Of a DNA stretch of 64,000 nucleotides, positions 1 to 15,673 are shown piece by piece. Source of the stretch: an uncultured Actinomycetes bacterium (GTDB lineage Bacteria; Actinomycetota; Thermoleophilia; UBA2241); the NCBI GenBank assembly GCA_963767005.1, contig CAVYCN010000004.1:256001-320000 (forward strand), given 5' to 3'. A program made the position numbers and the translations under genes. The notes under the pieces are model-generated. The model saw only the letters and a list, made by a program, of their open reading frames with translations. It did no database searches and had not been told where the DNA came from. Each line of letters opens with the position of its first letter. Position 1 is the first letter of the stretch.

Positions 1-1073
1 TAGATGATGCTGGCCCCTGCCAGCGCCACCGTGAGTCCGGTGAGGGTCTTCTCGTGACCGCTCTGGGCGTCACCGAGCTTGCTGTCGCCCTACGCCCCGG
101 CGATGTAGCTCGGCAGGCGATACTGTCTGGCCAGCTGGGCCACCGCCGCGCCGATCAGGGCGAGCTCCGGCGAGCCGACCGACGCGGCCGCGTAGCGCAG
201 GTCCATGGCGGTCGTCGACGAGCCGTAGATGATCGGGCTACCGCGCTCGGTGAGCTCGGCGAGCACGAGGCCCGACAGCACCTCGGCGTTGTGCTGCACG
301 AGCGTGCCGGCGAGCGAGACGGGGGCCGAGCCGCCCGACATCGCCATGGACAGGATGGTGTCGGGCAGGCCGGCGCGCGAGCACTCGATGATCACCTCGG
401 TGGCGTCGCGCGGCAGCTTGAGCGGGCTGACCGGGCAGACGCCGAGGCCCAGGAACGGACGCTCGCGCAGCTTGTCCTCGCCGCCGGCGACGATCGCGGC
501 GAGCTCGATGCACTTGCGCGCCTCCCACTTGTCGATGGCCTCGCAGCCCACCGGCTTGGTGGTGTTGAGCAGGGCCGCCTCGAGCCCGTGGAGCGCGTAG
601 GTCTCGGTGGGCACGTCGCTTGCGCCCACGGCCGACTCGTAGCCGTCGATCTCGGGCAGCGCATCGACGAGCCGGGCGATGTCGCCCACGTCCTTGATGG
701 TGGCGTCGCGGTACTCGCCCGTGTAGGGGTCGATGTATTTGATGCCTTCGTCGAAGTTCGTGAAGGTCACGCGACCGGGCTCGACGATGAAGTCGCGGTC
801 GGGCGTGCGGCCGCAGTAGGCGATCTGCGACGGGCAGGCCGCCAGAGACTCCGCGACGACGTGGGCCGGGATGCGCACCATGCGGGTCTCGCGGTCGACC
901 CGGCAGCCGCCGTCGGCGAAGATGTCGAGTGGCTCGTCGTCTTCGACGAACACGCCGGTGCGCTCGAGGACCTCGAGGCTGGCGAGGTGGATGTCGGCGA
1001 TCTCGTCGGGTGCGAGGACGCTGAGCGAGGCTCCTCCGCTGCGCCCGCGCCCCGCGTGCTGGGGCCGTTTCAC
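1..1073 (-). CDS. mttB: Trimethylamine:corrinoid methyltransferase (MttB family), pyrrolysine-type; in-frame TAG at 92-90; 3' end outside the window
   Basis: MttB-like motifs (CPVSPLKL, SMAMSGGSAPVSLAGTLVQHNAEVLSG, YGSSTTAMDLR, VGSPELAL). After the TAG the frame continues GDSKLGDAQSGHEKTLTGLTVALAGASII to the window edge, matching the post-Pyl MttB segment. GGGAGG RBS before the GTG. Confidence 0.9.
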
Positions 1074-1251
1074 GAAGCACCTCCCGTGGATCGCTCGCTG
1101 ACCATAGGGTGGCCGCCGTCTCGCGCACCACGACCGGTGATGCGGGCAAGGACCGCGGTCCCGCCTCGGCGCCGGCGATCGACTTTCTACGACGCGCGGC
1201 CCCCCACGGCGTGCAGTCTAGCCGAACGTCGCCGGGGCTCGCCGTGGAGCG

Positions 1252-1809
1252 CTAAGTTTGGCCCGCTTTCCGCCGCCGGTAGCTGCGCGCCTTCGCCTGG
1301 CTGCCGCAGACGTCCATGCTGCACCAGTGCCGGGAGCGGTTCTTGGACTGGTCGTAGAAGGCCCACCGGCAGGTGTCGCTGCGGCACACTTTGAGGCGCG
1401 GCCAGGCGCCGGTCTCACCGGCGTCGTGGACGATCGAGAGCAGGCGCGCGAGCGCGCCGTCGACGTCGCTCGACACCGGCTCGAGCGGCGCCTGGCCGTC
1501 GGTGCCGAAGCGTACGACCAGCCGGCCGCGCCGGGCGCTTCTGTTCAGGGCGGCGAGCGCGTCGTCGGCGACCGGCTCGCCCTCGTTGTTGGCCAGCAGA
1601 GCGGCGCGCAGCGCTTCGCGCAGCTCGACGGCACGTCGCAGGTCGGCGGCGCGCACCTCGAGCCCGGGGGCGGCCAAACCGTGACCGGTGAGCCAGTCGG
1701 CCAGCTCGGCGGGCGTCGCCAGACCGTCGACGTCCTCGTCGAGATCGCGCGTGTTGACGAACTCCGCGACGAGCTCGAGCCTGCCCGGGCCCTGCTGCCC
1801 GTCGTCCAC
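1252..1809 (-). CDS. CGNR zinc-finger / ABATE-domain regulator
   Basis: FVNT near the N-terminus; C-terminal LKVCRSDTCRWAFYDQSKNRSRHWCSMDVCGSQAK; AAGGAG RBS before the GTG. Confidence 0.9.
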   Translation of the reverse strand: MDDGQQGPGRLELVAEFVNTRDLDEDVDGLATPAELADWLTGHGLAAPGLEVRAADLRRAVELREALRAALLANNEGEPVADDALAALNRSARRGRLVVRFGTDGQAPLEPVSSDVDGALARLLSIVHDAGETGAWPRLKVCRSDTCRWAFYDQSKNRSRHWCSMDVCGSQAKARSYRRRKAGQT

Positions 1810-7621: not shown

Positions 7622-10315
7622 CTAGGGTACGACGAAACGCGCCTGGCTGCCCGCGCGCGTCGTTGTGACTTCGAGTCGCGCCTCGATCTGGTCGCGCAGG
7701 TCGGCGACGTGGGAGATGATGCCGACGAGACGTCCGCCCGTCTGCAGGCCGATGAGCGTGTCGAGGGCCGCGGCGAGGTTCTCGGGGTCGAGCGAGCCGA
7801 AGCCCTCGTCGACGAACACCGTGTCGAGCTTGATGCCGCCTTCGTGGCGCTGCACGACCTCGGCGAGGCCGAGGGCGAGCGCGAGCGAGGCCTGGAACGT
7901 CTCGCCGCCCGAGAGGGTCGACACCGGACGCTGGGCGCCGCTGTAGGCATCGACCACCTCGAGGTCGAGGCCAAGGGCCCGCCGCCGGTCGCCGTTCACG
8001 CGGCGCCGCAGCGTGAAGCGCCGGTCGGTCATGGCCGCCAGGCGGGCCGAAGCGACGACGAGGATGTCGTCGAGGTAGGCCGCCAGCATGTACCGCTGGA
8101 ACGACAGGCGCAGCTCGTTGTCGCCGCCGGCGACCTCGGCGAGGCGGCCCACGACGGCGTAGTCGTCGGCGTGCGCGCCGAGCTCGGCCTGCAGGCGGAT
8201 GAGGTCGTCGGCGGCGCGGGCCAGGGCGTCGCGCGCCGCGAGCAGCCCGGCCCGCCGGTCGCGCGCGGCGTCGGCCGCCGCCGCCGCGCGCTCGTGGCGC
8301 GCGGCGAGGTCGTCGAGGTCGGGACGCTCGAGGCCGTCTGCCGCCGCGGCGGCGCGCCGCAGGCGCGCCGCCGCGGCCTTGCCGTCGCTGTCGTACGCCG
8401 AGATCTCGTCGGCGAGGGCGGCCGTCTGGTGCGGCTCGCGGCGCGCCGCGAAGTAGGCGTCCTGGTCGGCGAAGCCGGCGGCGGCGATGCGCGCGAGACG
8501 GTCGGTTTCGAGGTCGTCGAGCGTCTTCTGCAAGGCAGCGTAGCCGCTCTGCTTTTCGGTGAGCGTGGCCGAGGCGGTGATGAGCGCCTCGGCCGTCGTG
8601 CGATCGGCGGTCGCCGCCGCGTCGGCCGCCGCGGCGAGGGCGGTGAGCTCGGTGCGGGCGGCGGCCAGGCGGCGGTCGAGCTCGGTCGGGTCGCGCAGGT
8701 CGGCGGGCACGTCGCGACCGCGCTCGGCGAGCACCGCGACCTTGGCGGCGTGGTCGGTGCGGGCGTCGTCGAGCGCCCGCTCGGCGGCGCTCGTCGCGAC
8801 GTCGGCCGCGGCGCGTGCGGCGTCGCAGTCGCGGCGGAGCTCGGCCACCGTAGCGCGCCCCGCCACGACGTCGCCCTCGCCGGGGATCTCGCCCTCGGCG
8901 CTCGCCGGTGCGGGGTGGTCGGTGGAGCCGCAGACCGGACACGGCGCGCCGGGGCGCAGCGCGCCGGCCAGCAGGGCGGCCTGCCCCCGCGACCAGGCGC
9001 TCTCGAGGACGTCGAGGTCTGCCGCCGCCTGGTCGGCGGCCCGCGCGGCCGCCGCCACGCGCCCGCGGCCGTCTGCCGCCGCCTGCTCGGCGGCGGCCGT
9101 GCGCGCCACCAGGGCCTCGGCGCCGGCGTCGGCTTGCGCCTGAGCGGCGGCGAGGCCGGTCGCCCGCTCAGCCACGGCCGTGAGCTCGCGGATGCGCTCG
9201 GCCAGCTCGCCGCGCAGCGGCTCGTGCGCGGTCGCGGCCTCGAGGGCGGCGGCCGCCCGCTCGCGGGCCACCGCGGCGGCCGCGAGGGTGTTCTCGGCGG
9301 CCTCGAGCTCGAGCAGGCGCGGCGTGAGGTCGTTGCGGCGGTCGTGGACGAGGCGGTCGAGGGGTCGCAACGGTTCGGCCAGGCGGGCGAGGTCGAGCTC
9401 GGCCCGCAGCTTCTGGACGTGGTCGGCCCGCGCGGCGTGGCCCGCGACTTCGGCACGGGCCGCGCCGCGCTCGTCGAGGCAGGCCACGACGGACCGCGCC
9501 TGCGTGAGCTCGGCGAGCGCGGCCTGCCCGGCGGCGGCGGCCAGGGTAGCCGCCTCGTCGGCTTCGGCGACCTGCTCGGCGAGCCGTGCCAGGCGCTCGC
9601 CGAGGTCGTCGACCGACGCGACGTCGGCCGTACGCAGCAGCGCGTCGACCTGCGCCCGGGTGTCCTGGGTGGCGCGCTCGATCGCCTGGGCCTCGGCTTT
9701 GAGAGCCTCTTGCACGCGCAGGTACCGTTCGGTGCGAAAGAGGCTCTGGAGGATGTCCTCGCGGTCTCTGCCGCTCGACTGGAGCAGCTCCTGGAACCTG
9801 CCCTGTGGCAGCATGACCACCTGGCGGAACTGCTCGCTGCGAAAGCCGAGGAGCTCGACCACGCGGGCGCTGACGTCGGAGGGCTTGGTCGCGAGCGGCC
9901 TGCCTTCGGCGTCGTGGTCGTTCGGCGGCGTGTCGGAGCGGTCCCACAGCGCGGCCGTCGGGTTCTCGACAGTGACGCCGTCGCCGCGGCGCTTGGGCCG
10001 CTCCTGCAGCGGGCTGCGCCGCACCCGGTAGCGCCGGTCGCCGACCGCGAAGTCGAAGTCGACTTGGGTGCGCAGCTCGGGGGTGGCGTGGTCGGAGCGC
10101 ATGTCGCGGCCCTGGCGGGCGCTGGGGTCGGTGGCGGCGCCGCTCGTGGTGTCGCCGTAGAGGGCGAAGACCATGGCGTCGAGGATGGTCGTCTTGCCGG
10201 CGCCGGTCGGGCCGTGGATGAGGAAGAAGCCGTGGCGGCCCAGGGTCGCGAAGTCGAGGACCTGACGGCCGGCGTAGGGCCCGAAGGCCTGCATGACGAG
10301 GAGCTCGGGCTTCAC
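7622..10315 (-). CDS. sbcC: SbcC SMC-family ATPase
   Basis: Walker A GPTGAGKT, LPQGRF Q-loop, CPVCG zinc hook, LSGGE, FVDEGFGSLD. Confidence 0.95.
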   Translation of the reverse strand: MKPELLVMQAFGPYAGRQVLDFATLGRHGFFLIHGPTGAGKTTILDAMVFALYGDTTSGAATDPSARQGRDMRSDHATPELRTQVDFDFAVGDRRYRVRRSPLQERPKRRGDGVTVENPTAALWDRSDTPPNDHDAEGRPLATKPSDVSARVVELLGFRSEQFRQVVMLPQGRFQELLQSSGRDREDILQSLFRTERYLRVQEALKAEAQAIERATQDTRAQVDALLRTADVASVDDLGERLARLAEQVAEADEAATLAAAAGQAALAELTQARSVVACLDERGAARAEVAGHAARADHVQKLRAELDLARLAEPLRPLDRLVHDRRNDLTPRLLELEAAENTLAAAAVARERAAAALEAATAHEPLRGELAERIRELTAVAERATGLAAAQAQADAGAEALVARTAAAEQAAADGRGRVAAAARAADQAAADLDVLESAWSRGQAALLAGALRPGAPCPVCGSTDHPAPASAEGEIPGEGDVVAGRATVAELRRDCDAARAAADVATSAAERALDDARTDHAAKVAVLAERGRDVPADLRDPTELDRRLAAARTELTALAAAADAAATADRTTAEALITASATLTEKQSGYAALQKTLDDLETDRLARIAAAGFADQDAYFAARREPHQTAALADEISAYDSDGKAAAARLRRAAAAADGLERPDLDDLAARHERAAAAADAARDRRAGLLAARDALARAADDLIRLQAELGAHADDYAVVGRLAEVAGGDNELRLSFQRYMLAAYLDDILVVASARLAAMTDRRFTLRRRVNGDRRRALGLDLEVVDAYSGAQRPVSTLSGGETFQASLALALGLAEVVQRHEGGIKLDTVFVDEGFGSLDPENLAAALDTLIGLQTGGRLVGIISHVADLRDQIEARLEVTTTRAGSQARFVVP

Positions 10316-14485: not shown

Positions 14486-15673
14486 TTGGCTCGTATCAAG
14501 ATCTACACCAAGGAATGGTGCCCGTACTGCCTGAAGGCAAAGGCGCTGTTGCGCGCCAAGGACGTCGCCTACGACGAGATCGACGTGACGAGCGACGAGG
14601 CGCGCCAGGCGGAGATGGTCGAACGCTCGGGCATGCGCAGCGTGCCGCAGATCTTTCTCGATGGCGAGAAGGTCGGCGGCTACGACGACCTCGCCCGTCT
14701 GAACGCCACCGGTGAGCTCGACCGCCGCCTCGGGCGCGGCGAGGCGGCGCCGCTGCGCGACGTCTACGACGTCGCCGTCCTCGGCGCCGGGCCCGCCGGC
14801 CTCACGGCGGCCATGTACGCGGCCCGCAAGAACCTGTCGACCATCGTGGTGGCGAACGATCTCGGCGGCCAGGTGGGGCTGACCGCCGACATCGCCAACT
14901 ACCCGGGCTTCGACCACGTGACTGGGCCCGACCTCGTCGACCGCTACTACGAGCAGGCGGCCAGGTACGGCATCACCGAGCTGATCGGCGAGCGGGCGGT
15001 CGGCCTCAGCGTCGACGGTCGGTGCAAGGTGATCGACCTCGAGAGCGGGCGCAGCGTGCGGGCCGCGACCCTGATCATCGCGACAGGGGTGCAGAAGCGC
15101 CGGCTCGACGTGCCGGGCGAGAAGCGTCTGACCGGCAAGGGCGTGGTCTACTGCTCGACCTGCGACGGCCCGCTCTTCAAGGGTGCGACGATCGCGGTGG
15201 TCGGCGCCGGCAACTCCGGCCTCGAGGCGGCCATCGAGATGGATGGCGTGGCGGCCAAGGTTTACCTGGTGACCGTCGGCGAGTGGACCGGCGACGCCAT
15301 ACTGAAGGACAAGGCGTCGGCCGCGCGCACGGTCGAGTCGCTGCGCTACCACGAGGTCGTCGAGATCCACGGCGACGACAAGGTCGAGGCGATCACCGTG
15401 CGCGACGTGCGCTCCGGCGAGAGCCGGCGCATCGCGCTCGACGGCGTCTTTGTCGAGGTCGGCCTGTTCCCCAACAGCGAGTTCGCCCTCGACCTGCTGC
15501 AGACCAACGTGGCCGGCGAGATCGAGGTCGACAAGCGCGGCGCCACCGGCGTGCGCGGCGTCTTCGCCGCCGGCGACGTCACCGACAACCGCGACAAGCA
15601 GATCGTGGTGGCGGCCGGCGAGGGCGCTCGCGCCGCGCTCGCGGCCTTCGAGTACCTCGTCAAGCAGCCCTAG
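14486..15673 (+). CDS. Glutaredoxin-thioredoxin reductase (AhpF-like) fusion
   Basis: N-terminal WCPYC...SVPQIF...GGYDDL; then GAGPAG, YCSTCDG, GAGNSG, FAAGDVT. Confidence 0.88.
   Translation: MARIKIYTKEWCPYCLKAKALLRAKDVAYDEIDVTSDEARQAEMVERSGMRSVPQIFLDGEKVGGYDDLARLNATGELDRRLGRGEAAPLRDVYDVAVLGAGPAGLTAAMYAARKNLSTIVVANDLGGQVGLTADIANYPGFDHVTGPDLVDRYYEQAARYGITELIGERAVGLSVDGRCKVIDLESGRSVRAATLIIATGVQKRRLDVPGEKRLTGKGVVYCSTCDGPLFKGATIAVVGAGNSGLEAAIEMDGVAAKVYLVTVGEWTGDAILKDKASAARTVESLRYHEVVEIHGDDKVEAITVRDVRSGESRRIALDGVFVEVGLFPNSEFALDLLQTNVAGEIEVDKRGATGVRGVFAAGDVTDNRDKQIVVAAGEGARAALAAFEYLVKQP

Follow-up and report, generated by a model that had tools for sequence, protein, structure and literature searches.

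Two questions are raised by the gene at one end of the window, by which we mean the whole 64,000-nucleotide (nt) stretch of DNA analyzed here (C4:256001-320000 of the 3.44-Mb assembly of a wetland-type actinobacterium, with 19 contigs and a GC content of about 71%): whether an amber codon within its methyltransferase frame is read as pyrrolysine (Pyl), and how a bacterium that also ends many of its genes on UAG would tell one UAG from the other. An earlier note on this DNA had placed a TAG at positions 92-90 inside an open mttB frame, and the contig confirmed this. On the minus strand, the frame opens with GTG at position 1073, runs for 327 codons to ...RLPSYIAGA, reaches the TAG, and continues as GDSKLGDAQSGHEKTLTGLTVALAGASII up to the window edge. 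In the contig, it extends for 161 codons past the TAG to a TGA at codon 490, and the amber codon is codon 328 of a 489-residue MttB. The features of this region are as follows.

1..89, minus strand: read-through part of mttB within the window, codons 329-358; the gene extends about 400 nt past the window edge
9..24, minus strand: predicted mRNA hairpin GCUGGC-AGGG-GCCAGC with a 6-bp stem and an AG-starting tetraloop 72 nt past the UAG
90..92, minus strand: in-frame TAG, codon 328, predicted Pyl, aligned with Pyl334 of PDB 7XCL
93..98, minus strand: GGG GCG, the 5′ codon context of the amber codon; the family pattern is Gly as GGT/GGG plus Ala as GCG or Leu as TTG/TTA
93..1073, minus strand: mttB codons 1-327, the pre-amber part of a TIM-barrel methylamine:corrinoid methyltransferase
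345..347, minus strand: Met243, the equivalent of active-site Met249
747..752, minus strand: Asp108-Glu109, where the Methanosarcina enzyme has the Gly110-Thr111 cis-peptide
1079..1085, minus strand: Shine-Dalgarno-like GGGAGGT, 5 nt ahead of the GTG start
1252..1809, minus strand: putative ABATE/zf-CGNR regulator gene upstream of mttB, which ends on TAG and adjoins the orthologue in 2 of 13 loci

Translated through the amber codon, the protein scored 658.4 bits on TIGR02369 (equivalog cut-off of 525) and aligned over its full length with PDB 7XCL (E value of 1.6 × 10−112), the TAG falling without a gap on the Pyl residue, which bore out the claim that it occupies the catalytic Pyl position. 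A sense codon at this site in close orthologs had been named as a refuter; instead, each of the best 14 matches, which come from 13 of the 89 genomes of the order (likely Thermoleophilia UBA2241), carries one in-frame TAG. The 120 database homologues listed, with identities of 64-94%, all terminate at this motif (AGL in 66, AGA in 52, ASA in 1, and AGT in 1), and contigs of related organisms, which represent relatives rather than reads of this strain, span positions 90-92 in 4 of 4 runs with no change among those listed. Because these three sets of sequences all agree, the TAG is, judged by conservation, neither a chance event nor a sequencing slip. A nonsense mutation or an assembly error that left a dead gene would be in keeping with the fragmented genes on some contigs of the assembly and with the lack of a corrinoid gene adjoining this mttB copy. 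However, this explanation is already contradicted by the downstream 161 codons, which are intact and 68-96% identical in relatives, and by the presence of the TAG at the catalytic position in all 14 closest matches, and we regard its probability as negligible. RNA-library contigs of relatives cover the region as well, with small shares of words, and were for that reason rejected as evidence of expression. No relative was found in viral contigs.

The earlier note had also proposed that the organism expands its genetic code, a claim that a lack of pyl genes or tRNA-Pyl would have undermined. The search of the genome yielded the full set, with all six genes intact, on contig C3.

C3:236048-236911: pylSc
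C3:240092-240433: pylSn
C3:242986-243058: pylT
C3:243102-243923: pylD
C3:243942-245240: pylC
C3:245237-246370: pylB

All five proteins exceeded the curated cut-offs (PylSc, 298 bits versus 178; PylSn, 122 versus 51; PylB, 429 versus 348; PylC, 279 versus 248; PylD, 195 versus 150), and the tRNA-Pyl, located about 40 nt after pylD, has a CUA anticodon and G73. The best PDB match of PylSc (E value of 1 × 10−87) was 3DSQ/2ZNI, which we take to be the PylSc of Desulfitobacterium hafniense. As in the bacterial split system, pylSn and pylSc are separate genes that occur with pylBCD and pylT; here, however, the genes are scattered over about 10 kb at a fixed chromosomal site, are nearly fixed across a whole order, and are accompanied by a second pylB and pylD. 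The pylSc gene overlaps the stop of an amidase gene and follows this same gene in 11 of 11 named relatives. Between pylSc and pylSn (L032:8355-10064) lie a corrinoid gene and an unassigned radical SAM gene, kept in most named relatives (67-96% identity). The second pylB and pylD, at C4:551.8-554.3 kb beside another mttB, belong to a cluster (C4:545069-554336) that also holds a corrinoid gene, two permeases for amino acids, and the most divergent Pyl-mttB; since its codon scores fall below the genome norm, this cluster may be a later-acquired module.

In the genome, 16 methyltransferase genes (7 mttB, 8 mtbB, and 1 mtmB) carry TAG at the family site, the 7 mttB being among 41 MttB-family matches. 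Judged from gene content and alignment, it is nearly certain that Pyl is inserted at UAG 328. The 34 further MttB-family matches and three mtmB-like genes lack the TAG and often stand in tandem with permeases. Two full-length proteins near the Pyl clade (P0179 and L212) have no amber codon, and the Lys at the Pyl position of P0179 represents either stored Pyl or a real reversion. The genome also contains tRNA-Sec and a formate dehydrogenase gene whose Sec motif holds an in-frame TGA. In-frame TGA codons with predicted hairpins were observed on C12 near 109784, in a presumably peroxiredoxin-like gene, and on C19 near 163120, in a formate dehydrogenase gene; given the tRNA-Sec and these genes, the genome appears to be a dual Sec and Pyl genome. 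Sec at the Pyl site of one MttB match was considered and rejected, as its TGA lies ahead of the start codon. Both tRNAs, a formate dehydrogenase with an in-frame TGA, and several Pyl methyltransferase copies are likewise found in dual Sec and Pyl Deltaproteobacteria, although the available text of the respective reports gives eight Pyl genes in the delta-1 symbiont, versus 16 here, and up to five mttB copies (PMC8318568, PMC1976440).

The same codon serves as a regular stop. UAG had been suspected to be ambiguous or conditional on account of neighbors of mttB that end on TAG, and this proved right: the genes at 7622-10315 and 14486-15673, which we take to be sbcC and Grx-TrxR, do end on TAG, and, mttB aside, so do 17 further called genes of the window (TAG ends 18 of the 57 called). 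Genome-wide, 900 of the 2791 genes called confidently by a self-trained gene caller end on TAG (32%, with the 16 Pyl sites removed), and RF1 is present (474 bits; cut-off of 423). Terminal TAGs exchange with other stops, as the position-matched homologue showed TGA or TAA for 12 of the 24 TAG-ending genes that had one and pylSc ends on TAG in 23, TGA in 14, and TAA in 4 of 41 loci (two pairs of which are identical). A role of the TAG ending pylSc as a feedback device was rejected because this stop varies among loci. The TAG use of 32% exceeds the range of 1-27% given for Pyl archaea in the available text of PMC12626013. At this usage and with no backup stops enriched after TAG, unselective read-through would therefore extend about 900 proteins by a median of 66 codons (the median extension is 53 codons after TGA). 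The following base did not distinguish the stops TAG and TGA across the genome (G in 44% and 43%, respectively). In a sample too thin for a comparison, TAG use was 4 of 14 and 3 of 22 in Pyl-negative class members, 24 of 58 in a Pyl-positive relative, and 14 of 44 in a family member without PylSc.

Coding-score and paralogue screens of 797 TAG junctions, which can miss genes without paralogues, returned a single further read-through candidate, a family-5 solute-binding protein gene (C13:17276-19063) with an in-frame TAG and no hairpin. It was rejected as a Pyl gene, since its orthologues (76-77% identity) show TCG (Ser) in its place and contain no stop. Its TAG is a private TCG-to-TAG change, whether a nonsense change, read-through that is tolerated, or an assembly error; if the last does not apply, the gene offers a natural test of unmarked read-through. 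The complete pyl machinery and the in-frame TAG of this one non-methyltransferase gene might suggest that all TAG codons are read as Pyl, as in the archaeal "code 34" type. Yet that TAG is private, the pylSc stop varies, terminal TAGs exchange with other stops, and the two screens, within their reach, gave no other read-through gene; neither many non-methyltransferase genes with a conserved in-frame TAG nor disuse of TAG as a stop, the traits of code 34, were found. We therefore consider this explanation extremely unlikely and regard it as virtually certain that UAG is ambiguous and not fully recoded.

Candidate marks of the Pyl codons were apparent in their surroundings. At 72 distinct Pyl sites (16 own and 56 from relatives), the codon before UAG was TTG or TTA in 34 of 34 cases of Leu and GCG in 37 of 37 cases of Ala, the preceding Gly was GGT or GGG at 60 of the 72 sites, and the base after UAG was G at 71. 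At the 16 own sites, Leu was encoded by TTG/TTA in 12 of 12 cases across all three enzyme families. As controls, these two codons accounted for 2.3% of Leu codons in the whole genome, for 2.8% in the remainder of the same own genes, and, ahead of terminal TAGs, for 1 of 68. Avoidance of CTAG was rejected as the cause of this bias, as C precedes TAG in 418 of 916 TAG-ending genes and CTG is avoided too. A bias toward rare codons right before UAG is indicative of selection that acts on decoding as such.

Rare synonymous codons also cluster at codons +22 to +33 after UAG, with GCA at +24 (loop forming; background of 1.7% in Leu-Ala-Gly) and GGG at +33 (background of 5.3%) in 43 of 43 mttB and GGA at +26 in 28 of 28 mtbB (background of 1.8%). 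They make up a predicted hairpin whose AG-starting tetraloop lies 72 nt after UAG in mttB, 78 nt in mtbB, and 114 nt in mtmB. The hairpin pattern matched at 16 of 16 Pyl codons, a count that is circular because the pattern was drawn from those sites, and at 17 of 900 terminal TAGs, 35 of 1770 TGAs, and 2 of 121 TAAs. An independent test was provided by metagenome mttB sites picked by their amino-acid pattern in at least 121 stretches. Among the copies listed, the hairpin with an AGG loop was present in 39 of 40 with a GC3 of at least 0.8 (many of them probably of the same lineage as this genome), 26 of 37 with a GC3 of 0.6-0.8, and 20 of 35 with a GC3 below 0.6, and was missing in 27 of 112 altogether. 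Among the matches listed, 119 metagenome mttB showed covariation of two synonymous positions (G-C 58, A-U 24, G-U 3, and A-C 1; P = 6 × 10−17) that was also seen in the mid-GC subset (P = 1 × 10−10, with P values of 0.09-1.0 for four control columns there), although all these P values overstate the significance because the sequences are related. In 117 distinct segments, 85% of cells were paired, above all slid controls and with 0 of 500 shuffles as high, and the 31 double-change cells were reached by neither shuffles nor slides; the count of pair types was not above shuffles (383 of 500). The copy in the window (24-9) has a C-G pair where most copies have U-A, with a change from Asn to Ser.

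Folding energies gave a modest signal, with mean z scores of −1.9 in mttB and −1.0 in mtbB versus −0.3 and −0.55 in control windows, and a z score of −1.4 for the window hairpin alone; no signal of structure was found in the first 60 nt after UAG (mean z score of +0.27). In a second Pyl family, the loop was kept in 7 of 8 mttB, with the closing pair broken in four of them, and six Methanosarcina-like mttB copies lacked the hairpin. The mttB1 primer in PMC9842639 starts with GCC GGT GCC AAC, i.e., without the A of the hairpin loop. The downstream structure is thus conserved, carries compensatory changes, and is rare after terminal stops, as would be expected of a PYLIS-type element. The window scored 54.7 bits (gathering cut-off of 38) with the Rfam model PYLIS_3 (RF02510, mttB), yet the mttB hairpin is absent from the consensus of this model, several of whose pairs are broken in the window. 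In contrast, the consensus of PYLIS_2 (RF02509, mtbB) already draws the same AGAC-loop hairpin. Neither model contains the AG loop shared by mttB, mtbB, and mtmB or the 5′ codon bias. In the available text of PMC3639795, no common structure is described for mttB, and that of PMC1976440 describes a search for a bacterial PYLIS in which no common structure emerged.

Collectively, these data make it very likely that the predicted hairpin is a real selected structure, while the chance that it acts on UAG decoding falls just short of even. That the rare P-site codon and the AG-loop hairpin 70-115 nt downstream, found in three unrelated methyltransferase families, would jointly select Pyl over RF1 is a proposal we advance tentatively. 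At a distance of 72-114 nt from UAG, the loop lies beyond the ribosome footprint. It is also conceivable, at somewhat below even odds, that tRNA-Pyl and RF1 plainly compete, tuned by a substrate-driven supply of Pyl as in Methanosarcina acetivorans, and that the hairpin, although real, protects or paces the mRNA behind a UAG-paused ribosome, acting through protection from nucleases or Rho or through binding of a regulator while the codon is not redefined. Such competition would accommodate the position of the loop, far from UAG and variable (72, 78, and 114 nt) when set against the roughly 20 nt between TGA and hairpin in the organism's own formate dehydrogenase gene, as well as the hairpin-less Methanosarcina-like copies and the fact that the analysis identified no partner factor for the hairpin. 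It also has a precedent in Methanosarcina, where, according to the available text of PMC13663744 and PMC12626013, Pyl needs no insertion element and, in the former, competition is controlled by supply. What it accounts for less readily is the rare-codon bias directly before UAG and a TAG use above that of Pyl archaea (PMC12626013) with no backup stops enriched. We prefer the reading in which the gene is one of 16 amber methyltransferase genes and likely encodes a Pyl enzyme, UAG likely remains a stop elsewhere, and the hairpin and rare codons would favor read-through, and we assign to this explanation as a whole a probability of roughly 0.8.

The earlier note had further held that the enzyme demethylates trimethylamine, a claim that stood in part. 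It is favored by the TIGR02369 equivalog score and by the kept active-site residues, since Met243, Tyr358, and Gly366 correspond, in the alignment to 7XCL, to Met249, Tyr364, and Gly372, named as active-site residues in PMC9842639. Not in its favor are the Asp at the Gly110 site and the lack of an adjacent corrinoid gene. Gly110, which forms a cis-peptide with Thr111, is described in the available text of PMC9842639 as invariant (100%) among 66 Pyl-MttB; this family trait, which lies outside the HMM definition, is replaced by Asp108-Glu109 here. Of 55 diverse representatives whose sequence stops at the Pyl site, 40 kept Gly, and 13 of the 53 scored were without it. Asp108 is fixed in the clade of this copy (26 of 26 homologues with at least 80% identity and, among the matches listed, 12 of 13 Pyl copies in loci L191-L203). 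No corrinoid gene adjoins mttB here or in a 98% relative, whereas one lies directly after mttB in the orthologue loci L192-L197; the partner must therefore come in trans. The check for corrinoid-protein and RamA genes that had been suggested returned 16 corrinoid-protein matches and one RACo gene elsewhere in the genome. The corrinoid protein encoded at C4:546573-547211 bears the greatest similarity to the one adjoining the orthologues. Compared with the Methanosarcina barkeri MttB (PDB 7XCL/7XCM/7XCN; PMC9842639), the protein thus has the same Pyl position and equivalents of Met249, Tyr364, and Gly372 but differs in the Asp-Glu at Gly110-Thr111, in its bacterial host with 32% TAG stops, and in the lack of an adjacent corrinoid gene.

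Because of the Asp and the missing corrinoid gene, we consider trimethylamine a likely but not a certain substrate. The copy, which belongs to the NFDEG clade, could instead be a Pyl enzyme for another tertiary amine, for instance, an amino acid or amino alcohol bearing an N,N-dimethyl group, with the Gly-type copies taking trimethylamine. This would agree with the fixed Asp, with the presence of seven Pyl-mttB paralogues, 49-66% identical to this copy, that have Gly, Ser, or Asp at position 108, and with the amino-acid permeases, aminotransferase, and ornithine carbamoyltransferase genes beside other Pyl clusters. It nevertheless seems unlikely to us given the score above the equivalog cut-off and the kept equivalents of Pyl, Met, Tyr, and Gly372; moreover, Gly110 works via its main-chain carbonyl, according to the available text of PMC9842639, which a side chain need not disturb.

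As to the fate of the methyl group, the genome holds genes for a RACo activator, a pterin-binding protein, and MetF, as well as an Fhs motif. Neighbors of these support genes presumably encode FolD, HdrABC, and MvhD. An acetyl-CoA synthase domain, found in 60 of 89 genomes of the order, was not found in this assembly. However, motifs of EF-Tu, EF-G, and L2 from the ribosomal operon were not found in it either, which shows that the assembly, listed as 100% complete, is incomplete, and the absence of acetyl-CoA synthase is therefore not established. On one of its contigs, C5, many genes are fragmented. The likeliest route is transfer of the methyl group to tetrahydrofolate, followed by oxidation through formate, and many relatives could be acetogens.

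The earlier note had called such a pathway rarely described for actinobacteria, and it is less rare than this implied, in view of both published precedents and its spread across the order. Of the 89 genomes of the order, 80 had a PylSc above the cut-off and 84 a Pyl-type MttB, the latter with 1 to at least 15 copies per genome (at most 15 candidates were scored) and a TAG in all of the 150 matches listed of 358. PylB (E value of 1 × 10−60) was detected in 72 of 79 members of the family, in 9 of 61 genomes from one other family, in none of 260 from ten more families of the class sample, and in 2 of 401 in the phylum sample; all these counts come from kin that are not independent and mostly from incomplete metagenome-assembled genomes (MAGs). 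Eleven PylSc relatives (63-87% identity) are Actinomycetota or Thermoleophilia MAGs, and the same pyl gene order, with neighbors 75-87% identical, occurs in the records bog_752 and Thermoleophilia SMAG_U15266. The genus Bog-752 is placed in Thermoleophilia, order UBA2241, in the supplement of PMC10805028, which makes this the likely order of the present organism. No 16S rRNA gene was found in our assembly; the taxonomic placement is based on protein identity with named records. FastTree trees, computed without support tests, were used to view clades alone. Three small genomes of the family (G027, G028, and G075; 1.7-1.9 Mb, 94-98% complete) have no Pyl-mttB; two of them lack PylSc and PylB, and one has PylSc without PylB. 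They could reveal how Pyl is lost.

Pyl methyltransferases in Actinobacteria are already published and not in themselves new. PylRS is given for two Actinobacteria in the available text of PMC9630628, and that of PMC10805028 describes expression of Pyl-type mttB and mtbB for Actinobacteriota MAGs from Stordalen Mire and names Bog-752 and RBG-16-64-13 as active methylotroph genera. These organisms likewise have Pyl-type mttB and mtbB, whereas the available text of the two papers contains no order-wide census, TAG-usage analysis, or cis element, and five supplements, one of them truncated, gave no match to Pyl or pylS. We found no published account of an order-wide Pyl trait in Thermoleophilia or of this mttB hairpin in a search that was thin for subscription journals and covered preprints without their supplements. 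What the present analysis adds is the fixation across the order, the frequent use of TAG as a stop, the Asp108 clade, and the pair of selected cis features.

Based on established chemistry, PylBCD would make Pyl from lysine, and PylSn and PylSc would charge the tRNA(CUA) with it. At the Pyl sites, the conserved predicted hairpin and the rare upstream codons would favor read-through, with UAG likely remaining a stop elsewhere. Pyl328 would then form the amine adduct, and the methyl group of trimethylamine or a similar tertiary amine would pass to a corrinoid (B12) protein encoded elsewhere. As the gene content suggests, a RACo/RamA-type activator would reset the corrinoid, a pterin-binding methyltransferase would hand the methyl group to tetrahydrofolate, and MetF, FolD, and Fhs, together with a selenocysteine formate dehydrogenase, would oxidize it.

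How a sense UAG is told from a stop in Pyl organisms has a current answer in archaea, namely, that there is no discrimination. The present lineage, in which 16 Pyl sites stand against about 900 terminal TAGs, is a hard case. Since both cis features can be mutated without changing the protein, discrimination of UAG is directly testable here. Should these features increase read-through, bacterial amber suppression based on PylRS pairs could benefit as well. If codon and hairpin do act jointly, they would constitute the bacterial PYLIS that in 2007 had been predicted yet not found, and this order of Thermoleophilia, with Pyl in about 90% of genomes, one-third of stops being TAG, and up to at least 15 mttB copies, would be its clearest natural case. 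Standard annotation truncates these enzymes at the amber codon, as in 120 of 120 homologues listed. An entire order of actinobacteria from soil and peat seems to have the means to demethylate methylamines, in competition with methanogens.
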